From an uncultured Candidatus Saccharibacteria bacterium (GTDB lineage: Bacteria > Patescibacteriota > Saccharimonadia > JAGOAT01 > CAYZIP01): DNA of 64,000 nt. Every line of letters starts with the position of its first letter. The stretch's first letter is position 1. Positions 34,833 to 54,161 of the stretch are shown here, piece after piece. The position numbers and the translations under genes are program-made. The notes under the pieces were generated by a model. It was not told the origin of the DNA, searched no databases, and saw nothing but the letters and a program-made list of their open reading frames with translations. The stretch spans positions 4,143 through 68,142 of the forward strand of contig CAYZIP010000003.1 in the NCBI GenBank assembly GCA_964478695.1. The letters run 5' to 3'.

Positions 34833-35179
34833 TGCTTTAACTGCTAGTCCTTTCTGTAATTTATTTGCTTATATTAAAGTCAATTTTTGAGATTAATTTT
34901 TTGAGATTATAAATTCAATCATAAAATTATATTATACTCTATAAAACTATCGAACTGTATTAAAAAAACTATCAAAACGCATTAAACTTAATAAGGATTA
35001 TCAAAGCAAAGGCCCACCAAAACTCTAGGATGGATGTAATATAAAATACTTATTTGGCTGCTTGGAGGCTATCATCTTTTTTTAAATGGGGTTTACTTTT
35101 AAACATGTTCATAGATAGCAAAAGAACTCCCACCTTTATCTGGCGAGAGCTCTTTGCGACGGGCGTTAAATAACATCAA

Positions 35180-35191
35180 TTTTGGTGCGGA
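35180..35191. repeat. A 12-nt TTTTGGTGCGGA copy of the tRNA-Leu(CAG) 3' end, a candidate attL of the 35.2-48.0 kb island.
   Basis: An identical 12-mer at 47963..47974 overlaps the tRNA-Leu 3' end. The flanks partly agree as well: caATTTTGGTGCGGA versus ccATTTTGGTGCGGA. Confidence 0.4.
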
Positions 35192-35618
35192 ACCCGCACA
35201 TAACTTTGAACTACTGAGTAGTATAGCTGATTGGCTATTTTCTAACAAAATTGCGGACGCCTTTCGGCTTCCTCAGCTTGATACAGAAAGCATCAGATTA
35301 CAGAGGTTACAGCCCAGCTACACCTACTAGCACTATATTTACTAGAGTAAGGTTTGAACCGTACCCAACAATCTAATTGTTAGGAAACAGTGGCAGTTGT
35401 TGGATTAGGACATATGCTTTAGGTCATAGCGATACTGCCCCCCCCTATGCTAATACCGCCCTAAACTGAGAACAATGTAAACGCACATACTACCTAAATA
35501 ATTACCGACATAAAAAAATGGTTTATTTTCCTTGTTGGTAACGGTAGATAATTACCGAGTTCAAGGTGCTTCCTCTCTTCAAATGGTTGCTAGTCCAATA
35601 CAAGGCTATAATTAAACT

Positions 35619-36299
35619 ATGATAAGAAACGACTTTAATCAGTACATCGAAAAGTATATAGAAGGCTACTTGTTTGCCGACCTTAAAACAATCCACGAAA
35701 AAGTAAGCAGAGACGGTAGCCACCAGCAGTCTCTTGGTAATTTAGCGTATCTTTTTACGATTGCTATGTGTTCGGCTATGGAGTTTTTGGGGTTATTGCT
35801 TCGAGATAAGGACGCAGTCAAGGACGGTAAGGTTGACGCCTCCAACGCCCTATCTCACTACATAAAATACTACCTAGAGCCCATTGACCCCAAGTATTCC
35901 ATACTGCGAGCTATAGGCTCTCAGTTAGTACGTAATGGCATATCACATACTTACGCCACAAAAGGAAACATAGCAATTACCCGTCAAGGCAAACGTGAGC
36001 AGACCCATTTTGTAAAATATGGTGCGGAAGGAGTGGTGGTGTTAAACCCTGATTATATTTACGAGGACTTCCTTAAGTCTTACGAGGTCGTTAAATCAAA
36101 ATTGGCAACAGATACAAATCTTCTTGCCCGAGTTGAGGAGCATTACAACTCAATCAAAGCTGTATACGTCAGTGAAGTAGCTAGCCTAAATACAGCGGAC
36201 ATTAACGGAATTGAGTGGAAAGATAAACTTAGTGGCATTGCAACGGACGACATTATCGACAGTATAGAAGTTAATGGCGACTTGGTCTTTGTGAGCTAA
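35619..36299 (+). CDS. Hypothetical protein, first gene of the island.
   Basis: A 226-aa ORF. The upstream leader carries two direct ATAATTACCGA repeats. Confidence 0.35.
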   Translation: MIRNDFNQYIEKYIEGYLFADLKTIHEKVSRDGSHQQSLGNLAYLFTIAMCSAMEFLGLLLRDKDAVKDGKVDASNALSHYIKYYLEPIDPKYSILRAIGSQLVRNGISHTYATKGNIAITRQGKREQTHFVKYGAEGVVVLNPDYIYEDFLKSYEVVKSKLATDTNLLARVEEHYNSIKAVYVSEVASLNTADINGIEWKDKLSGIATDDIIDSIEVNGDLVFVS

Positions 36300-36303
36300 A
36301 TAT

Positions 36304-37635
36304 CTAAATTGAAGTTTTTATAACTTCGCCGATGTACTTTTTGTTTAGCCAAAAGCATTTTTTAATTAGCTGAGTACCTTGCGGTGTTGGTAGGGTGTCC
36401 TTTGCGTTCTTGGCTTTAGGGCGAACGTGGGCAACATTGCTCTCAGTAGATTTTGGCAAGTCAGTAGCGTCTATGGCAACTCGTCGCTTAGTCTCCTCCC
36501 ATACACGGCGAGCCTCTTCGCGGTCGATAAACGGCATATTCCAATAGTTTACCTTAGCTAACCGTAGGTCGCCGTTCTCGTCCACTCGAAAAATAACTAG
36601 TAAGAACTTTTGCTCTATTTTGTTGAAAAAACTACTGTCCTCCCACTCCTCGTCTACTATATCGAGGTACTTAAAAGTAGGAAATGACATAGCCTCGGCT
36701 GGTAGCCAGTCTTTATTTACTCTGATAGTTTTTAGTTCAACACCAGCCTTATCAAGCTCTGGCACAGTTCTCTTTGTACCGCCTAGAATACGCATAGTCA
36801 GGCTTCGATAAAACCCTTTGTCGTTTTTACCGTGTTTATGGAAATCTAAGAGACTAGAAATCTCTTCAACAGTTTTACCGATGTAAGGCTTAAACTTGTT
36901 TTGGGTAGCGTCCTCGATTGTAACAGTAGCTGTTACGTCTAATACACCGACCTCTCCCGTATGACCCTCAATAATACGATTAACATAACTTGGCTTGAGC
37001 GAGAACGCCCTAGACTTTGCTGGTATATCAGAGTTCGGTTGTTGTCTTAGTTTTTCCTTCTCACCACCAGAACCTTTTCGACAAGCACCTAGATAGTAAG
37101 TGTCTCCCTCTGATAGTTCGTGAGCAAGTCCGTTCTCAATTTTCTTACGTATAGTTTCCCAGTCACGCTTTATAATCTCTAGGTCTTTCTCTGGAAACTC
37201 AAACAAAATCGGGTGCAATACAAATCGCCTATCAAAAATCGACAACTCTTTTTCGTACAGATAAAACAGCAACAGCATCAGACTACATTTTTCCATTAAC
37301 GACGAAGTATCCCACCTCTCGTTAACTAGGTTCATATAGTTAATCATTGTCAAAACAAGGCGTTCCTTTGCCTTGTAACTGCCGTCTGTTCTTTTTAGCA
37401 CTCCTGTAGTTTTTAGTTCTACTCCAGCGTCAGGAAAATCAGGAAGGTGCGTTGTATTGTCGGGCTGGTATCTGTAATAGTACCGTTCAACCATATTACC
37501 TAAGTCGCCCTTGTTGCTTATATTTTCGGCAACTCGGGACATATCCACTACTTCGGCGAGTGTTTTGCCAGAGAGACCACGAGCGTACTCTAATAGAGAC
37601 TGAGGAGAGCTTATATCATAAGTCGCTTGTGCCAT
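36304..37635 (-). CDS. Sau3AI/MutH-family type II restriction endonuclease with a two-domain architecture.
   Basis: LPDFPDAGVELKT at the N-terminus and a second degenerate copy, VPELDKAGVELKT, in the C-terminal half. This matches the Sau3AI duplication of the MutH fold. Confidence 0.65.
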   Translation of the reverse strand: MAQATYDISSPQSLLEYARGLSGKTLAEVVDMSRVAENISNKGDLGNMVERYYYRYQPDNTTHLPDFPDAGVELKTTGVLKRTDGSYKAKERLVLTMINYMNLVNERWDTSSLMEKCSLMLLLFYLYEKELSIFDRRFVLHPILFEFPEKDLEIIKRDWETIRKKIENGLAHELSEGDTYYLGACRKGSGGEKEKLRQQPNSDIPAKSRAFSLKPSYVNRIIEGHTGEVGVLDVTATVTIEDATQNKFKPYIGKTVEEISSLLDFHKHGKNDKGFYRSLTMRILGGTKRTVPELDKAGVELKTIRVNKDWLPAEAMSFPTFKYLDIVDEEWEDSSFFNKIEQKFLLVIFRVDENGDLRLAKVNYWNMPFIDREEARRVWEETKRRVAIDATDLPKSTESNVAHVRPKAKNAKDTLPTPQGTQLIKKCFWLNKKYIGEVIKTSI

Positions 37636-37709
37636 ATACTCAATTGTATCAAAAACATCGGTAAATGGGCTTGATCGAAAGCTATAAAATTGGTAAGATA
37701 GTTGTAAGT

Positions 37710-38963
37710 ATGGTAAAAAAAATCAAAGTCGTTGAGTTGTTTGCTGGTGTCGGGGGCTTTCGTATTGGTCTAGACAGAGCAAGTAACGACAAGTTTAAGT
37801 ATGAAACAGTTTGGGCTAATCAGTATGAGCCAGCAACCTCTCGTCAACACGCCTCAGAGGTGTATGTAGCACGTTTTGGTAAGAAGGGTTTTAGTGGTCG
37901 TGATATTGAAAAAGTTATAGAAGATGATTTCGATAGCATACCAGACCACGACTTACTCGTCGGTGGCTTTCCTTGTCAGGACTACTCAGTAGCAAGCACA
38001 CTTAAACACTCTCACGGTCTAATCGGTAAAAAGGGCGTATTATTCTGGTCAATCTACACTATTTTGCAACGCAAAGGCGATAAAGCACCTGACTACCTTT
38101 TTCTTGAAAATGTAGACCGCTTACTCAAGTCTCCAGCAAGTCAGCGTGGCAAGGACTTCGCTGTTATGCTCGCTTCGCTATCTGACCTTGGATATGCAAT
38201 TGAGTGGCGAGTTGTGAACTCTGCTGAGTATGGCTTTCCACAGAGGCGACGTAGAGTGTTCATTATTGGCTACAAGAAAGGCACTAAACTTTATGAGAAA
38301 GCTAAAAAAGCCGTTGCGAGCGAGTGGTTGACGAAAGACGGTGTACTAGCTGACGCCTTCCCCGTAGAGCCGACGCTATCAACTCACGAGGTTAAACTCG
38401 AAGGTACTTACGCTGACATTACGCAGAACTTCTCTGCTAATAAGCCAACTCTAAGCCCATTTGATAACTCAGGTTTAATGATAGACAGAGTGGTTATCAC
38501 GGGTAAGGTAAACCCAGTATACAGTGGCAAACATATGTCCCTAGGTGAAGTGCTTATTGACGAGAAAGATGTACCCGATGAGTTCTTTATACCCGAGGAC
38601 AAGCTACCTCAATGGACGTATTTAAAAGGTGCTAAAAAAGAGGAGCGTAAAACGGCAAGCGGACACGTTTATCATTATGCCGAAGGTGCTATGGTTTTTC
38701 CCGACGCATTAGATAAGCCGTCTAGAACGATTATCACAGGCGAGGGCGGTTCTGGAGCGTCTCGCTTTAAGCACGTAGTTAAAACACCGTCAGGTCGCTA
38801 TCGTAGGCTCGTACCACTTGAGTTAGAGCGACTTGATATGTTTCCCGACAATCACACCCAACTCGAAGGTGTTTCTGACGGCAAAAGGGCTTTCTTTATG
38901 GGTAATGCCCTTGTAGTTGGTGCTATCGAAAAGGTCGGGCACTCCCTCTCGAGAAAACGATAG
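37710..38963 (+). CDS. DNA cytosine-5 methyltransferase, a probable M.Sau3AI-like partner. The ORF opens at 37665.
   Basis: ELFAGVGG is motif I. GFPCQDYS is motif IV. ENV is motif VI. RRRVFIIG is motif VIII. It is divergent from the REase gene. Confidence 0.88.
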   Translation: MVKKIKVVELFAGVGGFRIGLDRASNDKFKYETVWANQYEPATSRQHASEVYVARFGKKGFSGRDIEKVIEDDFDSIPDHDLLVGGFPCQDYSVASTLKHSHGLIGKKGVLFWSIYTILQRKGDKAPDYLFLENVDRLLKSPASQRGKDFAVMLASLSDLGYAIEWRVVNSAEYGFPQRRRRVFIIGYKKGTKLYEKAKKAVASEWLTKDGVLADAFPVEPTLSTHEVKLEGTYADITQNFSANKPTLSPFDNSGLMIDRVVITGKVNPVYSGKHMSLGEVLIDEKDVPDEFFIPEDKLPQWTYLKGAKKEERKTASGHVYHYAEGAMVFPDALDKPSRTIITGEGGSGASRFKHVVKTPSGRYRRLVPLELERLDMFPDNHTQLEGVSDGKRAFFMGNALVVGAIEKVGHSLSRKR

Positions 38964-39026
38964 TATCCGAGCTCTTGTAACTGGGATATAATATGGTCAG
39001 ATACCGTTCTGGGCATTATTAAAATT

Positions 39027-41252
39027 ATGACAACACTAAAGAAAATCACTAAATTAAAAAATTTAGGCGTATACGCTGATTTTAGTTGGGGCTCTGATTT
39101 ACCTGAACTCAAGCAATACAATGTGGTGTACGGCTGGAACGGCACTGGTAAAACTACACTCTCAAAAATGCTGGGGGCTTTAAATACAGGTAGCCACACA
39201 GACTTCGCATCTCTCGAATACTCGGTGTTAGATAGTGATGGCAATACGTACACTCAAGGTTCTGAATTTACGACCCCTGTTAGAGTATTTAACTGTGAGT
39301 TCATAACTAAGAATGTAGACTTCGATGCACTAAGCTCAAAAACTATAACCGTAGTCTTAGGCGAAGAGAATAAAGAGGCACTTGAGGCTATTGAAGTTGA
39401 TGAAAAGAAATTAGCTGAGGTTATTTCGAACATCACGAAGAAAACAACCGCCAAGAGAACAAAAGAGAATACGCATAGCACGGCGTTTACCGATATAGCT
39501 CGAACTATAAGCCAAGGAACTCAAGGAGCGATAGTAAGAAACTACAATAAGACGAATGCTGAGGTTGCTTTTCGTACAATGAGTGGTAAAGAGTTACTCG
39601 ATGAGACTGAGTTGGCTAAAGTTTCTAAATCTGTGGCACAAGACACGATGCCAAAAATAACTGAGTTGTCCTTGGTAGGTGTAGATGAGATGCTAGCAGA
39701 TGCAATTACCGAAGCTAAGACACTTTTAGGTAAAACTGTCGAGGCAACGATTATAGCTAGGCTTAAAGATAACCAAGATATTTCAGAATGGGTTGAAGCT
39801 GGACTAGCATTACACGATAAGCACGCCAGTAAAAGCTGTGAATTTTGCGGACAAGCCTTAGGTACTGCTCGAATTACCGACCTAACCGCTCACTTCAATG
39901 AAGCCGATGCAAAACTAAAAGCTGATGTTGATACAGTCGTCGATACTTTGAGGCAAGTATATTCGAGCGTTGATAATCTGCAAGTATTAGACAAGGCGAA
40001 TGTTTATAAAGAATATCAAGATGTTTATACGACTAGCGGTGAGGATTTTTCTGAAAAGAAAAAGTTAGTACTTGATGCGATTAGAAAGTTTGAAGAGTTG
40101 GTTAATTCTAAAAAAGCTCACACGACCGAAGCCCTCCCTGTTGGTGAGGTACCTAGCCTTGAAGAGCTGAGTAAGTCTATAGCAACGCTCAATGGCATCA
40201 TTTCAGAGCACAACAATAAAACGGACGAGTTCGATGACCGTCGAAAAGCGGATAGCCAAAAGATTGAACGACACTATCTCAGTACCATATACGATTCAGT
40301 GCAGACACTCGAAGACAATATAAAAGTACTGAATGATGATTTAGAGCAGTTAAACGAAGACGAGAGCAACGGTAAGAAAGCACTTGAAACTAGAATTGCT
40401 GGTAATAGAGCAAAGATATCCTCTTCACATAAAGCCTGTGAAATGCTTTGTACTGATATTAAAAAGTTTTTAGGACACGGTGAAATTACCTTCAAAGTTA
40501 ATGCTGATGATACGGGTTACGACATTTTGCGAAATGGCAAACCAGCGAAAAGCCTTAGTGAAGGCGAGCGAACAGCTGTGGCATTCGTCTTCTTTATAAC
40601 GCACTTAAAGGAAGAAGGCTTCGACTCAAAATCTGGCATTATCGTCGTTGACGACCCCGTGTCCAGCCTTGACGCTAACTCGCAATTTCAAGCTTTTTCT
40701 TTTCTGAAGGAAGCCACCAAAGACGCTGGTCAATTGTTTCTTTTTACACATAATTTTGAATTTTTAAAACTCGTTTTATATTGGGTTGGTCGCAATAAAA
40801 CTAAACGTTCGTTGTTTATGGTCAATAATACTTTTTCAGTAGCTGATGGCTCCCGAACAGGTGCATCACTTATAAGACTTGACCCTTCTCTTGAGAAGTT
40901 TGAAAGTGAATATCATTATCTTTTTAATCTTGTCTATGGCTATGGTAACGGCGATGGCACTATAGCAAGTGCCTACACGATGCCAAATGTAGCCCGAAAA
41001 CTATTGGATAGTTTTCTAATGTTTAGGGTTCCGAAAAATGTCGAAACTTACGCACGCCTACAAGAACTTGATTTTGACGAAGAGAAGAAAACGGCAATAT
41101 ACAAGTTTACTAACGACCAATCTCATATAACTGGTGCTGGGTTTGACCCCTCGCTTGTCCCAGAAGCTCAAAAGTGCCTTAAATATCTTCTTGAGTTAAT
41201 GGAAGCGACCTTCCCCGAACACTATAAGTACCTAGTTGAAGCGGTATCATAA
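39027..41252 (+). CDS. RloC/PrrC-like Rad50-type ABC ATPase with a coiled coil and a CxxC zinc hook, plus a C-terminal domain of about 190 aa. It is a putative anticodon-nuclease or abortive-infection protein.
   Basis: Walker A GWNGTGKTT. A long K/E-rich coiled coil containing SCEFCGQ. ABC signature LSEGER. Walker B/D-loop IIVVDDPVSSLD. H-loop FLFTHN. Confidence 0.5.
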   Translation: MTTLKKITKLKNLGVYADFSWGSDLPELKQYNVVYGWNGTGKTTLSKMLGALNTGSHTDFASLEYSVLDSDGNTYTQGSEFTTPVRVFNCEFITKNVDFDALSSKTITVVLGEENKEALEAIEVDEKKLAEVISNITKKTTAKRTKENTHSTAFTDIARTISQGTQGAIVRNYNKTNAEVAFRTMSGKELLDETELAKVSKSVAQDTMPKITELSLVGVDEMLADAITEAKTLLGKTVEATIIARLKDNQDISEWVEAGLALHDKHASKSCEFCGQALGTARITDLTAHFNEADAKLKADVDTVVDTLRQVYSSVDNLQVLDKANVYKEYQDVYTTSGEDFSEKKKLVLDAIRKFEELVNSKKAHTTEALPVGEVPSLEELSKSIATLNGIISEHNNKTDEFDDRRKADSQKIERHYLSTIYDSVQTLEDNIKVLNDDLEQLNEDESNGKKALETRIAGNRAKISSSHKACEMLCTDIKKFLGHGEITFKVNADDTGYDILRNGKPAKSLSEGERTAVAFVFFITHLKEEGFDSKSGIIVVDDPVSSLDANSQFQAFSFLKEATKDAGQLFLFTHNFEFLKLVLYWVGRNKTKRSLFMVNNTFSVADGSRTGASLIRLDPSLEKFESEYHYLFNLVYGYGNGDGTIASAYTMPNVARKLLDSFLMFRVPKNVETYARLQELDFDEEKKTAIYKFTNDQSHITGAGFDPSLVPEAQKCLKYLLELMEATFPEHYKYLVEAVS

Positions 41253-41740
41253 TGACAGACAACCGAAAACACTGGCTCAACGAGGATGGCTTGGAAATGA
41301 TAGAGCCAGACCCGAGGTGGGACAACCCAGACTATGAGCCTGTCGAACAACCACGCCCCGATGACATTGTTTATAGACTAAACTACGATAGCGACCTACG
41401 TTATCTCAAGCTTAATACTTTTGTCGTCCAGACGTTCCAATTTGAGAGCCACGCTGACAGAGTATTCGGCGAGCTGTTCAAGCAAGAGGGAGACGTAAAA
41501 GCAATCACTGTTCACAGCCCCGCCAAAGCCGATGTAATCGTCAATAATATCGCTATGCCAATAAAACTACGTAACGCTATGTTCACGACTGGTAGTAAGG
41601 GCACTCGGTTGCAAGTGCACACCGTTATCACTAGAGAGCGAGCCAAAAAGTTTGGTGTTAGCGATAAAGAGGTACGAACATATATCGACAAATGCCGAGA
41701 TACACACTACAAGCTACGAGATACCAATAAACGTAAATAA
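41252..41740 (+). CDS. Hypothetical protein, translationally coupled (ATGA) to the RloC-like ATPase.
   Basis: A 162-aa ORF with no motif I recognise. Confidence 0.35.
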   Translation: MTDNRKHWLNEDGLEMIEPDPRWDNPDYEPVEQPRPDDIVYRLNYDSDLRYLKLNTFVVQTFQFESHADRVFGELFKQEGDVKAITVHSPAKADVIVNNIAMPIKLRNAMFTTGSKGTRLQVHTVITRERAKKFGVSDKEVRTYIDKCRDTHYKLRDTNKRK

Positions 41741-41965
41741 ACCACCCCGTTTCTGCGACAGCCTCGCAGTGTTTTGACACGATGGGCGTATGGAAACGCT
41801 AACCGCAGAAAAACTGGAAAGCCCTGCCGACGTACTGGTAGAGTTTTTGGACGAGTTAGCAAAGATTGAAGCAACACCTGAAAAGATTGAGCGAAATAGT
41901 ACGACGATGACCGCTCCTGACGGAACTGTTATTACATACTAAGCATCGACTGCGGTAAAATAAGG

Positions 41966-43780
41966 TTGATGGAGAATGAAAACCAAGAGCTGGATGTAAC
42001 AAAATTACGCTACGTCCTATACGCCAGAAAATCTACCGAAGACGAAGGTAGTCAAGTTAACTCTATCGACGACCAGATACGTATTTGCCTAGAGTATGCC
42101 AACAATCACGGACTACACATCGTAAAGGTTATCAAAGAAGAAAAATCTGCCAAGAAGTACGGCAATCGCCCCCAGTTCACGGAGATGCTTAAGGGTTTCC
42201 CGATACAATACGACGGTTTGCTAGCATATCACCCTGACCGAGTAGCTCGTAATATGCGTGATGCTGGCATAATTATCGACCTACTAAACCCCGAGAAAGC
42301 TCAGATTAAAAGTATGGCGTTTCCGACTGTGCAGTATGCAAATGACAGTAGCGGAAGGCTTACTCTAGCCGTGCTCTTTTCACTTGCAACGCAATTTTCT
42401 GAACATCTAAGCGAGGTTGTGAGGCGTGGCGTAAAAACTAAGCTCAATAAGGGTATATCGTCGGGTGCTCCAAAATGGGGTTACGAACGTAATGAGATTA
42501 GCGACTTTTATGAGCCTGACGCTAACTTCCAATACGTACAGCGAGCGTGGATGATGCGAGCCGAGGGTGAACGTATTGCTGATATTGTAAAGTACCTCAA
42601 TAGCCACGACGTGAAGCGTATCACCAAGATTACGAGAACCAATAAGAAGCAACGCACTATCAGACCAAGCCAAACGAGTATCACTAAAATGTTTGGCGAT
42701 AGTTTCTTCTACGGATTGCTTATACAAAAGGGTCAGGAGGTAGATTTACGCAAAGTTACTACCAGTTTCACGCCAATGATTGACGAGGAAACTTACGACC
42801 GAGTACAAGCAGTTTCCTACAGACGCTCTAGGCTCAAGCCGAAGTCTATAAAAGAGGGCATCTTCTATCCTTTTAGAAGTATGGTGTTTTGCGGTGTTTG
42901 CCACAGTGATACGCCAATGCGAGTGGGTAAAAACAAGAGCGGTGGTAGTGGTCACGTGCTGTCGTACCGTTGCGATAATCCAAACTGTAAGAGAACTGTT
43001 AAGAGTGTTCGAGCTAAGTACATACTTGACGGGCTCTATGATGCCCTGAAGACCCTCCAGCTCACCGACAAGGAGTACGAAACCTATAGCAAGAGACTAG
43101 ACGAGCTTACAGACGATAAAATTGACGAGCTACAGTCCGAACGACGAAGCCTCAATGGTGTTAAAAATGTAAAAACCAAAGAACGAGATGACCTCTCTCG
43201 TAAGTTCCGTGATATGACCGATAAGCACCCTTCGTATGCCGTCACCGAAACTGACATCACAGTACTTCACAATGAAATTATCGACATCGAGACGAGAGTA
43301 GCCGAAATTACCTCAAAACTAAGGAACACAGATACTATCAAGCTCACGAAGGAAGAGTTTTTGAACTTGGCAAAAACAGCGTACGACAAGATGAGAGCTG
43401 GAACTCCACTTGAAAAGGACATACTTGCACGAAAAATGCTTTTGAACCTATCCCTAAATGACGAAAGAGCTCCTTCCTTTATCTGGAAAGAGCCCTTTGC
43501 CACGGTGTTTGCTAACACCCAATCTTCTTTTGGTGCAATTTTACACTTTTGCGCGAACCGAATTCCAGCGCAGCTGCGAGTGAGTGAGCCGCGCCGCCTG
43601 TGCGGGCAAGCCCGCACGCGCCCCACCAGCCGCCCCCTTACCTTATTTTTTGAGATTTCCCCCGCCGAATTTCTTTTTTTATCTGAAAAGGGGTTGGCTG
43701 GTGGTTCGCCTACTGCAAGCAGTAGAGGCGGCACGGCTTTAGTCGGCATAGCCGACGCGCTACGCGCATCACTCCTGTAA
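41966..43780 (+). CDS. Large serine recombinase 1. The true C-terminus is probably near 43530 and the ORF reads on into the repeat.
   Basis: YVLYARKSTEDEGSQ contains the catalytic Ser. LAYHPDRVARN. A recombinase domain, a CxxC...C zinc ribbon and a coiled coil. The last 80 aa translate repeat DNA. Confidence 0.8.
   Translation: MMENENQELDVTKLRYVLYARKSTEDEGSQVNSIDDQIRICLEYANNHGLHIVKVIKEEKSAKKYGNRPQFTEMLKGFPIQYDGLLAYHPDRVARNMRDAGIIIDLLNPEKAQIKSMAFPTVQYANDSSGRLTLAVLFSLATQFSEHLSEVVRRGVKTKLNKGISSGAPKWGYERNEISDFYEPDANFQYVQRAWMMRAEGERIADIVKYLNSHDVKRITKITRTNKKQRTIRPSQTSITKMFGDSFFYGLLIQKGQEVDLRKVTTSFTPMIDEETYDRVQAVSYRRSRLKPKSIKEGIFYPFRSMVFCGVCHSDTPMRVGKNKSGGSGHVLSYRCDNPNCKRTVKSVRAKYILDGLYDALKTLQLTDKEYETYSKRLDELTDDKIDELQSERRSLNGVKNVKTKERDDLSRKFRDMTDKHPSYAVTETDITVLHNEIIDIETRVAEITSKLRNTDTIKLTKEEFLNLAKTAYDKMRAGTPLEKDILARKMLLNLSLNDERAPSFIWKEPFATVFANTQSSFGAILHFCANRIPAQLRVSEPRRLCGQARTRPTSRPLTLFFEISPAEFLFLSEKGLAGGSPTASSRGGTALVGIADALRASLL
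43745..43767. repeat. GC-rich palindromic motif GGCATAGCCGACGCGCTACGCGC, containing GTCGGC-ATA-GCCGAC. This is copy 1 of 3; the others are at 45579..45600 and 46228..46249, the last being a half site.
   Basis: Seen three times at module boundaries next to the recombinase genes. Confidence 0.6.
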
Positions 43781-43916
43781 ACATAGTTATTTTTCGCCAA
43801 ACCATTGACTTTCTACGCAAAGTGTGCTATTATGAAATAAATAAGCTTGCATTGCAAGCGCAATTCTCTTCGCAATAACATAATTAACTAAAACACAGAA
43901 AAGGAATAATCTATCT

Positions 43917-44654
43917 ATGGATATCCTCTATCTTGCGACATTTCTTGTCGCGCTTATATCAAGCATTTTAAGCGGCATCGCTGGCGGTGGTGGCGGATTC
44001 GTCATGTCGCCGTACTGGCTAATTTCGGGCATGACACCTGCGCAGGGTGCAGCAACTGGTGCATTTATGGCAACAGGCGTGTCTATTAGCTCGGTTGCAG
44101 CGTTTCGCAAGTCCGACCACTTCCCCAAAAACAGAAAGCTGCTGTATATTTTGTCGGTGACGACACTGATTGGCTCAATTCTCGGAGCTATCATTGTGCC
44201 GAAAATTGATATTCAAGCATTCAAATATATGCTGGCAATTATTACCATTGCGGCTCTGCCGCTTTTGTTTATCAAACCAAATATCAAACATCGCTTGAGT
44301 AAGCACGGCAACATTGGCTTGCTGTTCGCGATAGCACTCCTTATCGTCGGCTCAATCATCACCAGTAGTGCGTTTTCAATCTTATTCGCACTCACACTCA
44401 TGGCATTTTTCAGTATGTCAGTACTACAGATGACTGCTCTGCGCCGATTGGTTGGCGTGGTGCAGTCGGTAGTTTTGTTTGTTGCATTTGCGGTGCAAGG
44501 CTATCTTGTCTGGCAACATGCTCTCGCTGGGTTTATTGGCGGTAGTATCGGGAGTTATATCGGCACGAAGTATGCTATTAAGAAAGGTGAAACTTTCGCC
44601 AAGTATGCACTGGCGATTATGTCACTTATCGGTGCGGTTGCGCTGTTAGTGTGA
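43917..44654 (+). CDS. TauE/SafE (TSUP) family anion exporter-like membrane protein.
   Basis: ILSGIAGGGGGFVMSPYWL and repeated 4-TM halves. The gene is GC-rich. Confidence 0.7.
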   Translation: MDILYLATFLVALISSILSGIAGGGGGFVMSPYWLISGMTPAQGAATGAFMATGVSISSVAAFRKSDHFPKNRKLLYILSVTTLIGSILGAIIVPKIDIQAFKYMLAIITIAALPLLFIKPNIKHRLSKHGNIGLLFAIALLIVGSIITSSAFSILFALTLMAFFSMSVLQMTALRRLVGVVQSVVLFVAFAVQGYLVWQHALAGFIGGSIGSYIGTKYAIKKGETFAKYALAIMSLIGAVALLV

Positions 44655-44666
44655 GATAATAAGATT

Positions 44667-45245
44667 ATGAAAAATATACAATCTTCCGAACTAAACGAAA
44701 GTTACGCACCTATGCAGGAAGTTGAGCCAACGCCAATTCACACCATAGAACCTATGCAACTCGATGATACAGACGGGGTTCATACTCTCTTGCGAGCAGG
44801 ACACCTGGCAACATATGTCAATGAAGAGCTGGGTGTTACTGCTGAAAAGGTAGACCAGCGTTTCTCTGGCTCAACACCCGAAGAGCGTCGAGAGAGAAAT
44901 AAAAAACGTATTGCCGACCCTAATAATCAAGCTTGGGTTGCAAAAGATGACAAGCAGCAAGTTATCGGATTTGTTGCTCCTCGCATCGAGGAGGACGGCA
45001 CACATCGTCTAGGCGCATTATATGTAACCAAAGAATGGCAAGGTAAAGGCATAGCCCATGAACTCATGGCTAAGGCGATTGATTGGCTTGATGGCGAACA
45101 CTATGATATTAAGCTCGGTGTCGTTACGTACAATGAACGCGCAAAAGCGTTTTACCGTAAGTATGGTTTCGAGGAAGTCCCAGATTCTGAAACACTTTTT
45201 GACGATCTCATACCAGAAGTATTTATGGTGCGAAAAGCGCAGTAG
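44667..45245 (+). CDS. GNAT-family N-acetyltransferase.
   Basis: QGKGIAHELMAKAIDW...AFYRKYGFEEV is an acetyl-CoA binding motif. Confidence 0.7.
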   Translation: MKNIQSSELNESYAPMQEVEPTPIHTIEPMQLDDTDGVHTLLRAGHLATYVNEELGVTAEKVDQRFSGSTPEERRERNKKRIADPNNQAWVAKDDKQQVIGFVAPRIEEDGTHRLGALYVTKEWQGKGIAHELMAKAIDWLDGEHYDIKLGVVTYNERAKAFYRKYGFEEVPDSETLFDDLIPEVFMVRKAQ

Positions 45246-45434
45246 GTCGCTAAAGCGACAGCGCACCCACCAGCCAACCCCTTTTCAGATAAAAAAAGAA
45301 ATTCGGCGGGGGAAATCTCAAAAAATAAGGTAAGGGGGCGGCTGGTGGGGCGCGTGCGGGCTTGCCCGCACAGGCGGCGCGGCTCACTCACTCGCAGCTG
45401 CGCTGGAATTCGGTTCGCGCAAAAGTGTAAAATT

Positions 45435-45539
45435 GCACCAAAATGGCAGAATTACGGAAATTGCCGCCCATTCGGGCGGTTTTTTCTCTGGCGGCGCGCA
45501 GCGCCAACCAGCTGTTTTTCTGGGGGGAATGAGATTTGG
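45435..45539. repeat. IR-B. It is an inverted copy of the 105 nt downstream of tRNA-Leu(CAG), including the last 6 nt of the tRNA and its terminator. Its partner is at 47867..47971, with 2 mismatches.
   Basis: I compared the reverse complement by eye. Confidence 0.8.
45463..45487 (+). terminator. Rho-independent terminator GCCGCCC-ATTC-GGGCGGT followed by TTTTTT. It lies inside IR-B, and a second copy at about 47920-47945 on the minus strand terminates tRNA-Leu.
   Basis: A GC stem followed by a T tract. Confidence 0.6.
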
Positions 45540-45628
45540 AGCACCAGCAAGCTGGTGCACTTTTTTGTTTTTTCTGTCGGCATAGCCGACACGCTCCGCG
45601 TACTGCATATTAGAAAAAGTCTATTTCA

Positions 45629-46213
45629 TCAGAGTAAGTAAAACGTCAGATGAATAACATTTGCAATGTAGATATTTCCTGTATACCGTCGTAAGAACGC
45701 AAAACCAAAACCAGCAATCGCAATCAGTATGAACTGGGGGTCTGTGATGTCATTTAGGAAAAATACAGCGTGTCCGAGTAGAAATACTATGGCCGTGACG
45801 ATTGCCGCTTTTGTAGCGGTTATTGTTTTGGCAAGGCGCGTTTGAAGCAAGCCAAATGTTACATAATCTTGCCAAAATACAGTAATGACAATCATAGGAA
45901 TATATACCCATATATCAAGCGCGAGCGCGTAGTGCCACGGCAAAAATACGAGCAATGTAGCTGGCACAGCATAGAGCCATAATAGTCTTGATTTTGGCAA
46001 TGACTCGCGCCGATATTTCGGTAATAAGCGAAGCGCAACAGCTGTAACTACCAGAACCCATACAGTCGCAATTGCATAGCTTATGTTCACGTCTATAGGC
46101 AGTTGCAGCAGGCGTTCATTCATGAAAATGCCTTGCGTTACTGTCCATATTAAAAACCACAAAATTATAGATATAAAGATAGTTTTATAGAGCGTAAAAA
46201 GCTGATGTGTCAT
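45629..46213 (-). CDS. Polytopic membrane protein, possibly CPBP/Abi-like (FLLGHAVFF). ATG 46213 is the likelier start; the ORF extends to 46273 through the repeat motif.
   Basis: About 6 TM helices. FxxxH and a later H are present. Confidence 0.35.
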   Translation of the reverse strand: MTHQLFTLYKTIFISIILWFLIWTVTQGIFMNERLLQLPIDVNISYAIATVWVLVVTAVALRLLPKYRRESLPKSRLLWLYAVPATLLVFLPWHYALALDIWVYIPMIVITVFWQDYVTFGLLQTRLAKTITATKAAIVTAIVFLLGHAVFFLNDITDPQFILIAIAGFGFAFLRRYTGNIYIANVIHLTFYLL

Positions 46214-46377
46214 TGTTTTTATTATAACATAGCCGACACGCTCCACGCCGTGGTAAAATAGAAGTGGACACAATCTATTAGTAAAACGGCGATATTTTTG
46301 GCTTTAATAGCCGTCCCGTACAATGCAGTTTTACTGGATTGTGTCCAGCGGGGCGGCTATTTAAGTGGAGGGCAACT

Positions 46378-48012
46378 ATGATGGAACTACTGGTAAACAT
46401 AGAGCCGGTGTATCTCATCTATGTACGAAAAAGCACCGATGTCGAGGACAAGCAAATATTATCTGTCGCAGCGCAGATAATAGAGCTAAAAGAGTTTGCC
46501 AAGCGCATGGGCTTGCGTGTTGCGGGTGTCATCATAGAAAAACAAACCGCGAAAAAGCCAGGACGCCCGAAGTTTAACAAAATGCTGGAGCGTATAGAAA
46601 ACGGCGAGGCAAACGGCATTTTGGCATGGCTGCCCGACAGATTGTCGCGCAACAGCATAGATAGCGGGCGCGTTATTTATATGCTTGATGAAAATGTTAT
46701 CGCCGACCTGAAGTTCCCGCATTTTTGGTTTGAGAATACACCGCAAGGCAAATATATGCTGGCTAATGAGTTTAACAGTTCTAAACAGTATGTAGATAAT
46801 TTGTCGGTAAACACCAAGCGAGGGCTGCGCCAAAAGGTGCGCGAGGGGCATTGCCCGCGCCTTGCGCCTGTCGGGTATATCAATGATGTGCGGACGAAAA
46901 CGATATGGGTAGACAAACGGCTTGCGCCGATTGTTCGCCAAGCGTTTGAGCTATACGCAACTGACACAAAGACGCTGGACGATATTGCCGCCTTTTTGTA
47001 CGCCAATGGTATAAAAACGCGCGGGCGGCGCAGGGTTAAGGACGAGCCAAAATCTGCGGGCGGGCGGCAATGGCATGCGTCGCGCGTGAAACGAATGTTG
47101 CAAGATGTGTTTTATTACGGGCATTTTCGCTATGTGGACACGGTGCATGAGGGCAAGCATACGCCCATCATTGACAAACCACTCTTTGACAAGGTGCAGC
47201 GAGCACTTGCAGGGCGTGGACGCGCGCAAAAGCGCGCTACTGCCCCGCAGCCGCTTAATTTGCTGGTGCGGTGTGGGAATTGTGATTGTTTTGTAACTGG
47301 TGCGCACAAGATAAAGCGGCAGAAAAACGGCAATGTGCATGAATATACCTATTATCGGTGTACTCACAAGAAAAAGGCGGCGATGTGCCGCGAAAAGGAG
47401 GTACGCGAATATGTACTGGCTGGACAACTCGTCCCGATTTTGCAATCTTTTGCCTTGCCAAAAGATTGGCGCGACTATATGGCGTCAAGGCTGGAGCAAG
47501 ACAGAGCCGAGCTAGAGAATGAAAGCAAGGCGATGATTGACACGCTGCGTGGTGAATTGGACGCCATAAGCGCGAAACTCAAACGACTTTTTGATATGTA
47601 TTTGGACAGTGATATTGACCGCGAGGACTACAAAGACCGCCAAGCCGAGCTGATGAGCGAGAAAAAGTCGCTTGAGGGCAAAATCGAGCGCGTTCTGGCG
47701 AACGCGGGGTACTGGATTGAACCTATGCAGCAATGGTTAGAAACTGCCGTTTCTATCTGTACGATAGACGAAAAATCGGAGCATAGCGAGATTGCGCGGG
47801 CTTTTCGCCAAATTGAAGGATTGAACCTAAAAATGAAAAACGAAAAAGTCGTCGCGGAGCGCGACGCCAAATCTCATTCCCCCCAGAATAACAGCTGGCT
47901 GGCGCTGCGCGCCGCCAGAGAAAAAACCGCCCGAATGGGCGGCAATTTCCGTAATTCTGCCATTTTGGTGCGGATGAAAGGACTTGAACCTTCACAGGGT
48001 TACCCCCACTAG
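46378..48012 (+). CDS. Large serine recombinase 2. The ORF opens at 46339. The C-terminal roughly 50 aa translate IR-B' and tRNA DNA.
   Basis: LIYVRKSTDVEDKQ, AWLPDRLSRN, a zinc ribbon and a coiled coil. GGAGGG lies upstream of ATG 46378. Confidence 0.8.
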   Translation: MMELLVNIEPVYLIYVRKSTDVEDKQILSVAAQIIELKEFAKRMGLRVAGVIIEKQTAKKPGRPKFNKMLERIENGEANGILAWLPDRLSRNSIDSGRVIYMLDENVIADLKFPHFWFENTPQGKYMLANEFNSSKQYVDNLSVNTKRGLRQKVREGHCPRLAPVGYINDVRTKTIWVDKRLAPIVRQAFELYATDTKTLDDIAAFLYANGIKTRGRRRVKDEPKSAGGRQWHASRVKRMLQDVFYYGHFRYVDTVHEGKHTPIIDKPLFDKVQRALAGRGRAQKRATAPQPLNLLVRCGNCDCFVTGAHKIKRQKNGNVHEYTYYRCTHKKKAAMCREKEVREYVLAGQLVPILQSFALPKDWRDYMASRLEQDRAELENESKAMIDTLRGELDAISAKLKRLFDMYLDSDIDREDYKDRQAELMSEKKSLEGKIERVLANAGYWIEPMQQWLETAVSICTIDEKSEHSEIARAFRQIEGLNLKMKNEKVVAERDAKSHSPQNNSWLALRAAREKTARMGGNFRNSAILVRMKGLEPSQGYPH

Positions 48013-48051
48013 CACCTGAAGCTAGCGTGTCTACCATTCCACCACATCCGC
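47966..48051 (-). tRNA. tRNA-Leu (anticodon CAG), with a long variable arm.
   Basis: GCGGATGTGGTGGAATGGTAGACACGCTAGCTTCAGGTGCTAGTGGGGGTAACCCTGTGAAGGTTCAAGTCCTTTCATCCGCACCA. Confidence 0.85.
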
Positions 48052-54071: not shown

Positions 54072-54161
54072 GCGGATGTGGTGGAATGGTAGACACGCTA
54101 GCTTGAGGTGCTAGTGCTTTATTTTAAGAGCGTGAAGGTTCAACTCCTTTCATCCGCACCA
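54072..54161 (+). tRNA. tRNA-Leu (anticodon GAG).
   Basis: GCGGATGTGGTGGAATGGTAGACACGCTAGCTTGAGGTGCTAG...GAAGGTTCAACTCCTTTCATCCGCACCA. The 5' 33 nt are identical to the CAG isoacceptor. Confidence 0.85.

Follow-up and report, generated by a model that had tools for sequence, protein, structure and literature searches.

How does a stretch of bacterial DNA come to carry two long, nested inverted repeats, one around cargo genes and one around a recombinase gene, directly beside a tRNA gene? The question is raised by positions 43528-47971 of a 64-kb stretch of Candidatus Saccharibacteria DNA (64,000 nucleotides, called the window here). A first-pass annotation of this DNA had recognized the repeats and proposed either that a serine recombinase may invert the enclosed segments or that the repeats record an inverse integration. 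Large serine recombinases (LSRs) are prized for genome engineering, and their reaction is simple, with one attP, one attB and one direction. Saccharibacteria are ultra-small episymbionts, and to our knowledge very few mobile elements are known in them.

A repeat finder returned the arms of IR-A at 43528-43704 and 45267-45443 (177 nt, 100% complementary) and those of IR-B at 45435-45539 and 47867-47971 (105 nt, 98%), the two mismatches of IR-B lying at arm positions 73 and 83, numbered from the core. The coordinates first proposed are thus confirmed except that the second IR-A arm begins at 45267 and not one base earlier, at 45266. Confirmed as well are the nesting of the two repeats, the inverted core common to IR-A' and IR-B, which is the 9-nt overlap GCACCAAAA of A' with B at 45435-45443, and the extension of both recombinase ORFs into the repeats. 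IR-A encloses the TauE and GNAT genes, and IR-B encloses the gene of an Rce1-like membrane protein together with the second recombinase gene. The core, TTTTGGTGC, occurs four times in the window, at 35180 (+), 43528 (+), 45435 (-) and 47963 (+), against a chance expectation of about 0.7; a count of four was reached in none of 100 shuffles. Cores c2 (+), c3 (-) and c4 (+) stand as inverted crossover sites around both segments. Among inverted repeats of at least 30 nt in the 64-kb window, only tRNA gene pairs come near IR-A and IR-B in length and identity. The features are as follows.

35180-35188, plus strand: core c1 (TTTTGGTGC), left end of the entire GC-rich island and left junction of the Rec1 element
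41969-43780, plus strand: Rec1, a large serine recombinase whose ORF continues via core c2 into arm A
43528-43536, plus strand: core c2, in attL, the left junction of the Rec2 element
43528-43704, plus strand: left arm of IR-A (core and A), the right (P') arm of attP; in order, a small hairpin, CGAACC at +25 from TGG, and three more conserved hairpins
43705-43835, plus strand: non-repeated conserved leader upstream of the TauE gene, with a 25-nt motif (GTCGGCATAGCCGAC..., 43742-43766) and a promoter-like site (TTGACT-17-TATTAT, 43805-43833)
43917-44654, plus strand: cargo gene of a TauE/SafE-family membrane protein
44667-45245, plus strand: cargo gene of a GNAT acetyltransferase
45267-45443, minus strand: right arm of IR-A (A' and inverted core)
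45267-45539, minus strand: internal site c3, reverse complement of B'-core-A (273 nt), with the inverted core at 45435-45443
45435-45539, plus strand: left arm of IR-B (inverted core and B), with half-site, intrinsic terminator hairpin with T-run (45463-45486), second hairpin and G6 box
45601-46227, minus strand: insertion with an Rce1-like/CPBP membrane protein gene (ORF 45629-46273, minus strand), missing in the closest relatives and flanked by a 20-nt direct repeat (45581-45600 and 46228-46247)
46378-48012, plus strand: Rec2, a large serine recombinase whose ORF crosses B' and the core and continues antisense to the tRNA gene
47867-47971, plus strand: right arm of IR-B (B' and core c4), the left (P) arm of attP; also the Rec2 ORF's final 35 codons and, read on the minus strand, the present terminator of tRNA-Leu
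47966-48051, minus strand: tRNA-Leu(CAG), the integration target, with its 3' ACCA within core c4

On balance, we read 43528-47971 as a single integrated mobile element, driven by the LSR Rec2 and belonging to a Saccharibacteria-specific family, that has kept an inverted attP inside. The element sits at the 3' end of tRNA-Leu and adjoins an older, unrelated recombinase island (35189-43527). Its layout is core - A - cargo - A' - inverted core - B - LSR gene - B' - core - tRNA gene. Three copies of the crossover site define the family, namely attL (flank-core-A), attR (B'-core-tRNA) and the internal inverted attP (A'-inverted core-B). Since the middle site, reverse-complemented, matches the reconstructed attP exactly, the 177-nt and 105-nt repeats are the attP arms, each present twice. 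Over 273 nt the internal attP does not differ from the junction copy, and such a second, complete and inverted attP in the integrated element departs from the one attP per element that characterizes LSR elements. A recombination directionality factor, which controls excision in such elements, was not recognized. IR-B had initially been taken for a copy of the native downstream flank of tRNA-Leu. B' belongs to the element instead, since the recombinase gene 3' end that it forms is conserved family-wide, whichever tRNA is targeted and across hosts, and can be followed in relatives down to ~55% identity. B' is GC-rich, in a host of ~35% GC, and the native tRNA flank has to be located to the left of 35180.

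Rec2 is a protein of 544 residues with the LSR domains Resolvase, Recombinase and zinc ribbon. The N-terminal resolvase catalytic domain (PF00239) was detected in Rec2 (E = 3.7e-15) and in Rec1 (E = 1.2e-21), the Recombinase domain matched PF07508 (E = 6.8e-17), and the score of PF13408, 24.2 bits, fell just short of the 25.3-bit cut-off. In the family alignment, C299, C302, C328 and C337 are invariant, as is the Y..R-K-S-T motif (R17 K18 S19 T20), and beyond the zinc ribbon comes a long stretch that looks helical. Size and domain set are those of an LSR, not those of the small invertases with their C-terminal helix-turn-helix and dependence on enhancer and Fis. Rec1 is only distantly related (22% identical), and its element has no internal inverted site. 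In all 46 distinct elements the frame of the recombinase ORF is open through the core, yet the B' tail showed no three-base periodicity as a functional protein segment would (column entropy 1.01, 0.95 and 0.98 by phase).

The nested layout recurs in 73 related loci, almost all from Candidatus Saccharibacteria. IR-B has a median length of 105 nt and a median identity of 98.1% in these loci, 29 of them at 100%, and IR-A is also present in 41 (median 180 nt, 27 at 100%). Neighbouring arms either abut or share 5-11 nt that include TGGT, and the length of B is constant at 105 nt among recombinases only 42-47% identical. Repeats are found in nearly all related elements, whereas the first-pass annotation had named their absence from close relatives as part of what would refute it, and a layout conserved to such divergence does not suit a record of inverse integration. 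A minus-strand tRNA gene adjoins B' in 51 loci, with 18 anticodons represented. The window element itself was found at 99-100% identity and in the same order in L001, L002, L013, L014 and L021, independent MEGAHIT and SPAdes assemblies from other samples, where the copies have other flanks and a different host tRNA-Leu. Likewise, L092 (at tRNA-Glu) and L093 (at a non-tRNA site) are 99.9% identical across 6.4 kb. The entire unit, internal site included, moves to new sites.

Among the cargo are restriction-modification systems, Abi-like ATPases, ABC-F proteins, transporters and acetyltransferases, and the family looks like a major route of accessory genes in Saccharibacteria. Timing the inversions by common cargo genes was abandoned, as the cargo is mostly unrelated between elements. 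No replication genes were found by Pfam annotation of both elements in the window and of nine cargo proteins sampled from related elements, no transfer genes in the cargo sampled, and no circular contig of the element in exact-protein look-ups and 2.9 million viral contigs. A phage origin was rejected, these viral contigs giving one distant match (25% identity). Full-text literature searches returned no description of a layout with an inverted spare attP.

Comparison of the same element in different flanks places the switch of identity within TTGGTGC, as in site-specific insertion with a short core, and the minimal core common to the family is TGGT. In every A arm GAAC is placed at +25 from TGG; in the T-loop of the tRNA, after allowing for the TGGTGG offset, it is at +21. 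A shifted motif spacing between attP and attB is what the LSR half-site model predicts. A carries a GAACC motif that resembles the one of the tRNA T-loop, moved 4 nt outward, and B is a tRNA trailer and terminator unit. No conservation was seen in the left half of attB in the family comparison. The T-loop and CCA end, universal to tRNA genes, appear to be the main features that the family recognizes; this would account for the use of at least 18 different tRNAs as targets by relatives. We also considered two circles, a cargo circle with palindromic A'/A and a recombinase circle with palindromic B'/B, inserted sequentially via a GC dinucleotide. This fits the window's TTTTGGT-GC, with GC as palindromic central dinucleotide, but is ruled out by cores as short as TGGTG (L027) and TTGGT (L037), which exclude GC and leave only the non-palindromic TG, GG or GT as central dinucleotide.

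Compensatory changes at 11 of the 17 predicted pairs in A, and at 8 of 15 in B, identify both arms as structured modules with covarying hairpins. Counts of G-U and A-C in the stems (~13 vs 10) gave no bias as to the strand on which the hairpins function, and no known RNA family other than the tRNA itself was found in the arms. Median A-arm identity is 67% between elements vs 100% within an element, a pattern by which the arms are homogenized within elements while diverging between them, i.e. evolve in concert. The hybrid left A arm of L001 changes from one arm type to another partway along, and between L083 and L117 a 9.3-kb cargo is 99% identical, the recombinase modules only 93%.

Can the segments invert, as the first-pass annotation supposed? 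The recombinase segment of L104 is opposite to that of L101 and L102 beside the same tRNA cluster, and arm SNPs put the exchange at most 37 nt from the core, a call that would be ambiguous were both arms identical in that strain. It is also flipped in L103, so that both L103 and L104 read tRNA - B - recombinase gene pointing away. Otherwise collinear genomes of the tRNA-Gln group differ in the direction of the cargo segment, as do L083 and L117; L110 has a reversed-type junction without a second arm, and elements with the cargo operon in one or the other direction relative to the recombinase gene are about equally common. Every orientation call comes from short-read assemblies spanning repeats of 105-245 nt, and for the minority cargo orientation (X) all three assemblies have perfect 243-nt arms, at which the choice of the assembler was possibly arbitrary. 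L006 and L015 (Logan, k = 31), in which A'-core is joined to a B' variant and a reversed recombinase gene, give a hint only, since a path at k = 31 is unable to link across 72 shared bases. Altogether, the comparisons between samples support inversion and suggest that each unique segment exists naturally in both orientations. Of 53 informative loci, 51 nevertheless have the recombinase segment in standard orientation, hence its inversion is rare or strongly selected against, and there is no free-running switch. The supposition that the serine recombinase is the inverter fares less well. In the tRNA-Gln(TTG) group the recombinase gene is 5'-truncated and lacks the catalytic N-terminus, yet the arms are perfect and the cargo is found both ways, so inversion and homogenization do not depend on the element's own recombinase.

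We propose that the circular form, as deduced from attL and attR, resembles the yeast 2-micron plasmid, with two unique regions and a pair of 273-bp inverted repeats that would contain the recombination site. Recombination between the inverted copies would flip the cargo or the recombinase module and leave the junction sequences unchanged. Rec2 may carry out the exchange at the core, or RecA may do so across the arms; for large serine integrases, attP x attL or attP x attR recombination is not expected without accessory factors. The same recombination, together with gene conversion, may keep the arms identical. The symmetric design would always give the tRNA the same terminator, whichever way the segments lie, and every outward cargo transcript would meet the same 3' module in either orientation. 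An arrangement in which the recombinase gene converges on the tRNA appears to be strongly favored. A selected function of the inverted attP is something that we only infer.

Other explanations have to be weighed against this one. It is possible, if doubtful, that the recombinase never uses the internal attP and that host RecA alone homogenizes and occasionally flips arms which are kept as useful modules; tentatively, B would serve for termination and insulation, and A either as a homology arm or as a structured 3' module. The truncated tRNA-Gln(TTG) group argues for this, as do the canonical terminator within B, the hybrid arm of L001, the predominance of the standard recombinase segment (51/53) and the closer match of cargo than of recombinase between L083 and L117, as expected for cargo exchange via conserved arms. 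A terminator or insulator, however, needs neither core nor half-sites, yet both are retained in essentially every element; the sole exchange point marked by SNPs falls within 37 nt beside the core, and the 105 nt of B are fixed across recombinases 42-47% identical. Alternatively, the excised circle could hold two equivalent attP sites, and flipped loci would reflect integration via the internal copy, not inversion in place. We regard this as unlikely. Although the 273-nt identity of the two copies agrees with it and L103 and L104 match the arrangement expected from the internal copy, about equal numbers of both arrangements are predicted, where 51 of the 53 informative loci are standard and independent insertions (the window, L001 and L002; L092 and L093) are all standard; also left unaccounted for are collinear genomes that differ in the direction of the cargo relative to the recombinase gene.

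Somewhat less probable again is that the element acts as a folded single strand. Pairing of A with A' and of B with B' would rebuild a double-stranded attP between two single-stranded loops, a "double panhandle" with an attP stem that, at a similarly long shot, a serine recombinase could recognize, prime or integrate from single-stranded uptake DNA. That strand might, with equally little likelihood, come from natural transformation, the fold being a device for surviving a single-stranded stage. Saccharibacteria are naturally competent, a single strand of the element contains both strands of attP, as reconstructed, in the correct arrangement, and repair of the paired stem would renew arm identity. 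The hairpin covariation in both arms indicates selection on a single-stranded form, DNA or RNA, and the family is essentially absent from viral contigs, with no transfer genes in the cargo sampled. Against this, the G-U and A-C counts express no strand preference, and, by derivation, cutting of a hairpin attP by a serine recombinase would produce hairpin-capped chromosome ends and require a further excision-type step. By far the least probable is a one-off inverse duplication, a scar of aberrant integration or a contig-specific chimera of metagenome assembly. Short-read assemblers do break at these repeats, with Logan contigs ending in the arms, but the same structure in independent assemblies by different assemblers and the 73 related loci with element-specific arm sequences refute an artefact or one-off scar.

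Taking the reading as an integrated LSR element with an inverted spare attP, its closest counterparts are the LSR elements and phages (phiC31, Bxb1, A118 and SPbeta integrases; TnpX/TndX transposons), with which it shares the domains of Rec2, site-specific insertion, the short core and a half-site motif at shifted spacing (+25 vs +21). Unlike these, the family keeps a complete inverted second attP inside the element, its recombinase ORF always crosses the crossover site, the left half of attB is unconserved and at least 18 tRNA genes are used overall; LSR sites usually measure 40-50 bp, whereas the arms here have 105 and ~180 nt with covarying hairpins. The proposed circle recalls the yeast 2-micron plasmid (FLP/FRT) and the flip-flop repeats of plastids and herpesviruses, where two unique regions are likewise separated by inverted repeats, both isomers are found and the repeat copies show concerted evolution; in 2-micron, too, the recombination site lies in long identical repeats and the recombinase gene in one unique region. 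FLP, however, is a tyrosine recombinase of an autonomous replicon, in which inversion serves copy-number amplification, whereas the enzyme here is a serine recombinase, the annotated window genes and sampled cargo proteins include no replication gene, and the element is seen integrated, one repeat copy divided into attL and attR. Hin, Gin, Cin, Pin and the shufflons also have inverted crossover sites around segments found both ways, and an ORF that spans the crossover site and has its C-terminal end altered by inversion. They depend on small serine invertases with 26-bp sites, enhancer and Fis (shufflons on a tyrosine recombinase) encoded outside the segment, while the LSR of this family is encoded inside an invertible segment of strongly skewed orientation.

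Integron attC sites and the attP of CTX phage resemble the folded form considered above, since inverted copies on one strand could pair into a double-stranded site, and the adenovirus panhandle offers a further likeness. Those sites are used by tyrosine recombinases that exchange one strand pair, and have adjacent repeats without enclosed genes; a single-stranded form of the present element, by contrast, has not been observed. Islands at tRNA genes, mostly with tyrosine integrases, and tycheposons are likewise small cargo islands at tRNA 3' ends, with tandem arrays and defence or resistance cargo. They restore the tRNA 3' end by a direct repeat, whereas the repeats of this family are inverted, its crossover lies in the terminal ACCA, and the element provides only a new trailer and terminator.

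The family is thus a natural departure from the LSR scheme, by its inverted second attP, its long structured arms, a recombinase gene across its own crossover site and the apparent recognition of mainly the T-loop and CCA end. Should inversion of the modules prove to be the work of the recombinase, the family would offer a natural inversion system based on a large serine recombinase. If the folded strand were real, it would represent a new class of recombination substrate and the first folded single-strand substrate for serine recombinases. As a minor observation, contigs frequently end inside the arms, many Logan contigs stopping exactly 30 nt into an arm, i.e. the repeats fragment short-read assemblies of these genomes.

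Both inverted repeats around the cargo and recombinase genes of the second element, noted in the first-pass annotation, are real. Also borne out is that A' and B, the arms in the middle, share an inverted core (the short crossover sequence), their overlap being GCACCAAAA. The interpretation then placed on these repeats is supported in part. The features concerned are:

35189-43527: first element, with MutH-like endonuclease, C5 DNA methylase, AAA_13 ATPase and the large serine recombinase (LSR) Rec1
36304-37635, minus strand: MutH/Sau3AI-like endonuclease gene, first element
37665-38963: C5 DNA methylase gene, first element
39027-41252: AAA_13 ATPase gene, first element, where a small ORF is also present besides Rec1
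43528-47971: second element, in the order core, A, TauE and GNAT genes, A', inverted core, B, Rce1-like gene (minus), Rec2 (LSR), B', core, tRNA gene
43528-43704 and 45267-45443: arms A and A' of IR-A, 177 nt, 100% complementary
45435-45539 and 47867-47971: arms B and B' of IR-B, 105 nt, 98% complementary
47884-47889 and 43656-43660: C-run box
47966-48051, minus strand: tRNA-Leu(CAG), its 3' ACCA within the last core

The tRNA-Leu(CAG) gene is adjoined by two elements in tandem, and GC content is 41-52% over ~35.2-48.0 kb versus ~32-37% in the host. The sequence TTTTGGTGC occurs four times in the window, at 35180 (+), 43528 (+), 45435 (-) and 47963 (+), against a chance expectation of ~0.7 copies, and four copies were reached in none of 100 shuffles. 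The two mismatches of IR-B lie 73 and 83 nt inward from the core. When reverse-complemented, 45267-45539 reads as 47867-47971 and then 43537-43704; hence, the middle site is a complete inverted copy of the attP (B'-core-A) that excision would create. An inverted-repeat comparison of the first element (35189-43527) revealed no internal inverted site, and Rec2 is just 22% identical to Rec1.

Searches with recombinase alignments yielded 46 genome loci and 70 metagenome loci; titled genome records are nearly all Candidatus Saccharibacteria MAGs, and viral contigs contain virtually no members of the family. The IR-B pair is present in 73 loci (median 105 nt, median identity 98.1%, 29 perfect), 41 of which additionally carry the IR-A pair (median 180 nt, range 67-272, 27 perfect), enclosing 0.8-5.7 kb of cargo. 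The inner IR-A arm abuts the first B arm or overlaps it by 5-11 nt, and in loci without a detected partner for A' an A-type arm still lies beside the inverted core. A minus-strand tRNA gene abuts B' in 51 loci, with 18 anticodons represented. Sampled cargo of related loci (among L023-L126) is accessory or defence-like, comprising Rce1-like proteins, ABC-F ATPases, a PLP-dependent decarboxylase, Eco57I-type and D12 methylases, an EcoRII-like endonuclease, an AAA_13 ATPase and a class II aminoacyl-tRNA synthetase paralogue. A arms share a median identity of 67% between elements but of 100% within an element, and mismatches in B are concentrated far from the core, which indicates that some process homogenises both copies much faster than elements diverge.

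The arrangement recurs independently of this assembly. Identical GNAT, TauE and Rce1-like protein sequences were found in more than 20 other samples, and the same order appears at 99-100% identity in MEGAHIT (k = 141) and SPAdes contigs (L001, L002, L013, L014, L021). Samples with this element include those behind ERZ27258485, ERZ1756137 and MAG DAOLHH01. Logan contigs (k = 31) end exactly 30 nt within the arms, as expected of true repeats. L001 is located at tRNA-Leu of another host, its left flank differs from that of L002, and the full unit is common to these two loci and the window in their different contexts. Likewise, L092 and L093, whose elements occupy tRNA-Glu and a non-tRNA site respectively, have 6.4 kb in common at 99.9% identity, all four arms included. 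Since the whole unit is shared in both sets, the mobile form contains the internal site. Comparison of the junction regions (L093:6860-6900 versus L092:11550-11600) reveals no tRNA at the L093 insertion site, GAAC at a similar distance and the sequence TGGTGAGCCTAC...GTGGAACTCC; judging from this, the site is a natural pseudo-attB.

The first-pass annotation regarded IR-B as a copy of the native tRNA-Leu flank. This does not hold, as B' is kept with the recombinase gene at many tRNA genes. When Rec2 is aligned with relatives as distant as ~55% identity, which occupy many different tRNA genes, the B'-encoded region is conserved, as is read-through into the antisense tRNA (...LVRxRGLEP), and the native flank of tRNA-Leu(CAG) must therefore lie left of 35180. 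Read on the tRNA strand, B consists of a short trailer, an intrinsic terminator hairpin with T-run, a second hairpin and a G6 box, with compensatory changes in 8 of 15 predicted pairs; the element thus supplies the tRNA with a new terminator. Variability across B' lacks three-base periodicity, which argues for constraint as DNA or RNA rather than as protein. The recombinase frame is open through the core in all 46 distinct elements, and recombination would change the C-terminal tail of Rec2 from ...LVRMKGLEPSQGYPH when integrated to ...LVQFYTFARTEFQRSCE in the circle. The C-run box, ATT(T)CCCCCC with 5 or 6 C, sits to the left of the core in B', at a distance of ~75-80 nt, and to its right in A, ~120 nt away; it is almost invariant family-wide in both arms and could be an accessory protein-binding site.

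Right of the core, the A arm has a small hairpin followed by (T)CGAACC, whose GAAC is at +25 from the TGG; the T-loop GAAC of the tRNA is at +21. Between attP-type and attB-type half-sites of LSR enzymes, a 4-nt outward shift is expected. The left flank of attL (flank-core-A) displayed no conservation in the family comparison, hence the enzyme seems to read chiefly the tRNA side. Three further hairpins in A display compensatory changes in 11 of 17 predicted pairs, and as single-stranded DNA the arm is far more stably folded than its shuffled counterparts (z = -6.0); the arms had no Rfam match. The loop of the last hairpin, ~45 nt including ATTTCCCCCCGCCGAATTTC, occurs in either orientation and is in some elements flipped in one arm only, which drops the apparent arm identity to ~80%. 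This hairpin, with a stem of ~20 bp and a conserved 45-nt loop, lies at 43618-43709 in the window and is also seen in L032, L123, L127, L131, L063 and L115. In some elements the shared core is narrowed to TGGTG or TTGGT, so that the crossover must be within TGGT, the complement of the tRNA terminal ACCA; as TGGT is non-palindromic, the middle site is truly inverted.

The recombinase segment of L104 reads tRNA-Thr/Tyr/Thr (+), inverted core, B and recombinase gene (+), while L101 and L102, at 99.3-99.9% identity, read recombinase gene (+), B', core and the same tRNA cluster (-). Both SNPs marking the B copy move with the segment in L104, placing the exchange at most 37 nt from the core. L103 has the same flipped arrangement at tRNA-Gly. 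Of 53 informative loci, 51 have the segment in standard orientation, indicating that assemblers do not randomise orientation and also that flipping is rare or counter-selected. At the tRNA-Gln(TTG) site, cargo occurs in two orientations, called from short-read assemblies as throughout: in the three state-X assemblies (L126, L129, L130), every one with perfect 243-nt arms, the flanks are collinear at 93-98% identity with those of state-Y L063, L125, L127 and L128, whereas cargo and arms are reversed at 95-99% identity in these and also in L115, L123 and L131. L110, a rearranged relative without the second arm, has a junction of state-X type. Furthermore, at least 9.3 kb of cargo, 99.1% identical, runs in opposite directions in L083 and L117, whose recombinase modules are just 93% identical. 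Across elements, cargo operons pointing one way relative to the recombinase gene are about as numerous as those pointing the other.

In the tRNA-Gln(TTG) group (L123-L131, L063, L115), the recombinase gene is missing ~40-50 codons at its start, among them that of the catalytic serine; B is just 74 nt, the 243-nt A arms are often 100% identical and the cargo includes an ABC-F ATPase. Inversion and homogenisation in this group thus cannot depend on the element's own enzyme. The earlier proposal that the segments may switch orientation agrees with both orientations of each being found between assemblies, but the element's own recombinase is not required as the agent in this group.

Altogether, these comparisons demonstrate a conserved three-site design with structured arms borne by the element. 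They also show that the arms evolve in concert, that the unit moves as a whole and that each segment occurs in both orientations. We propose that the circular form would consist of two unique regions parted by a pair of 273-bp inverted repeats, with a recombination site in each. Exchange between the inverted copies would flip a module, leave the junctions unaltered and keep the arms identical. By this symmetry, the tRNA would get the same terminator, and outward cargo transcripts the same 3' module, in every state. A less probable, though serious, alternative is that the arms are retained as functional modules and recombine through RecA only; it is well supported by the fossil lineage whose recombinase gene is truncated, and by the cargo that L083 and L117 exchanged. 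That two equivalent attP sites permit integration either way is improbable, as the 51:2 bias speaks against it. Attractive, and compatible with the covarying hairpins, is a single-stranded copy folding into a double-stranded attP, to which we give still less credence. A scar or artefact is refuted by the same order in independent MEGAHIT and SPAdes contigs and by the layout in related loci.

Judged by domain content and insertion behaviour, the second element belongs to the LSR integrative elements, but that class has a single attP, which the second element does not. The proposed inversion would make it work like an invertible-segment system, though not a Hin/Gin-type switch, as the enzyme is of another class. 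The circle that we infer recalls the yeast 2-micron plasmid, yet the element is known here as integrated sequence and, unlike that plasmid, no replication gene was found among annotated window genes and sampled cargo proteins. A full-text literature search found no description of an inverted internal attP layout.

The first element (35189-43527) is a defence-type island. Rec1 probably arrived first. Rec2 would need no more of its target than the tRNA half, and it is the tRNA-proximal element that recurs at 99-100% identity across many samples. In L025, a shorter relative that shares the Rec1 tail lies to the left of another, different Rec2-type element. The host-side flank at 35110-35179, left of the first core, has ~75% identity over ~50 nt to the 3' end of the Rec1 gene and would encode ...PTFIWRELFATGVK* versus ...PSFIWKEPFATVFA in Rec1; either an earlier Rec1-type element left this remnant, or the resemblance reflects attB/attP similarity. 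In L001 (620-700) and L110 (7890-7945), a B'-arm-like piece of 30-40 nt lies in the flank left of A, and this junction looks like a direct attP, not attL; a neighbouring element or a tandem copy may have left the piece behind. In L042 (4730-4838, 14041-14176), a second insert of ~2.5 kb without Rec2-family match lies between a Rec2-type element and tRNA-Gly, its right end directly repeated just left of that element, which suggests tandem arrays including a possibly non-autonomous partner.

Compared with L023 and its relatives, the second element has an insertion at 45601-46227, the Rce1-like gene segment; a 20-nt direct repeat (CATAGCCGACACGCTCC...) flanks it at 45581-45600 and 46228-46247. 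A third copy of the motif, at 43742-43766, lies upstream of the TauE gene; it may be a promoter/operator or a second recombination signal. Six kb off on the other strand, tRNA-Leu(GAG) (54072-54161) has its last 32 nt in common with tRNA-Leu(CAG) (47964-47995) at 97% identity and is a potential second target, oriented like the internal attP; recombination between the two, if it happened, would excise 8.7 kb including host genes. Finally, in region 2145-2402, a stretch made up of the tRNA-Gln(TTG) 3' end and the following 28 nt (2202-2247) recurs in direct orientation 155 nt on (2357-2402) at 98% identity, resembling the att duplication that a very small or decayed insertion would leave; tRNA-Gln(TTG) is used by Rec2 relatives in other genomes.
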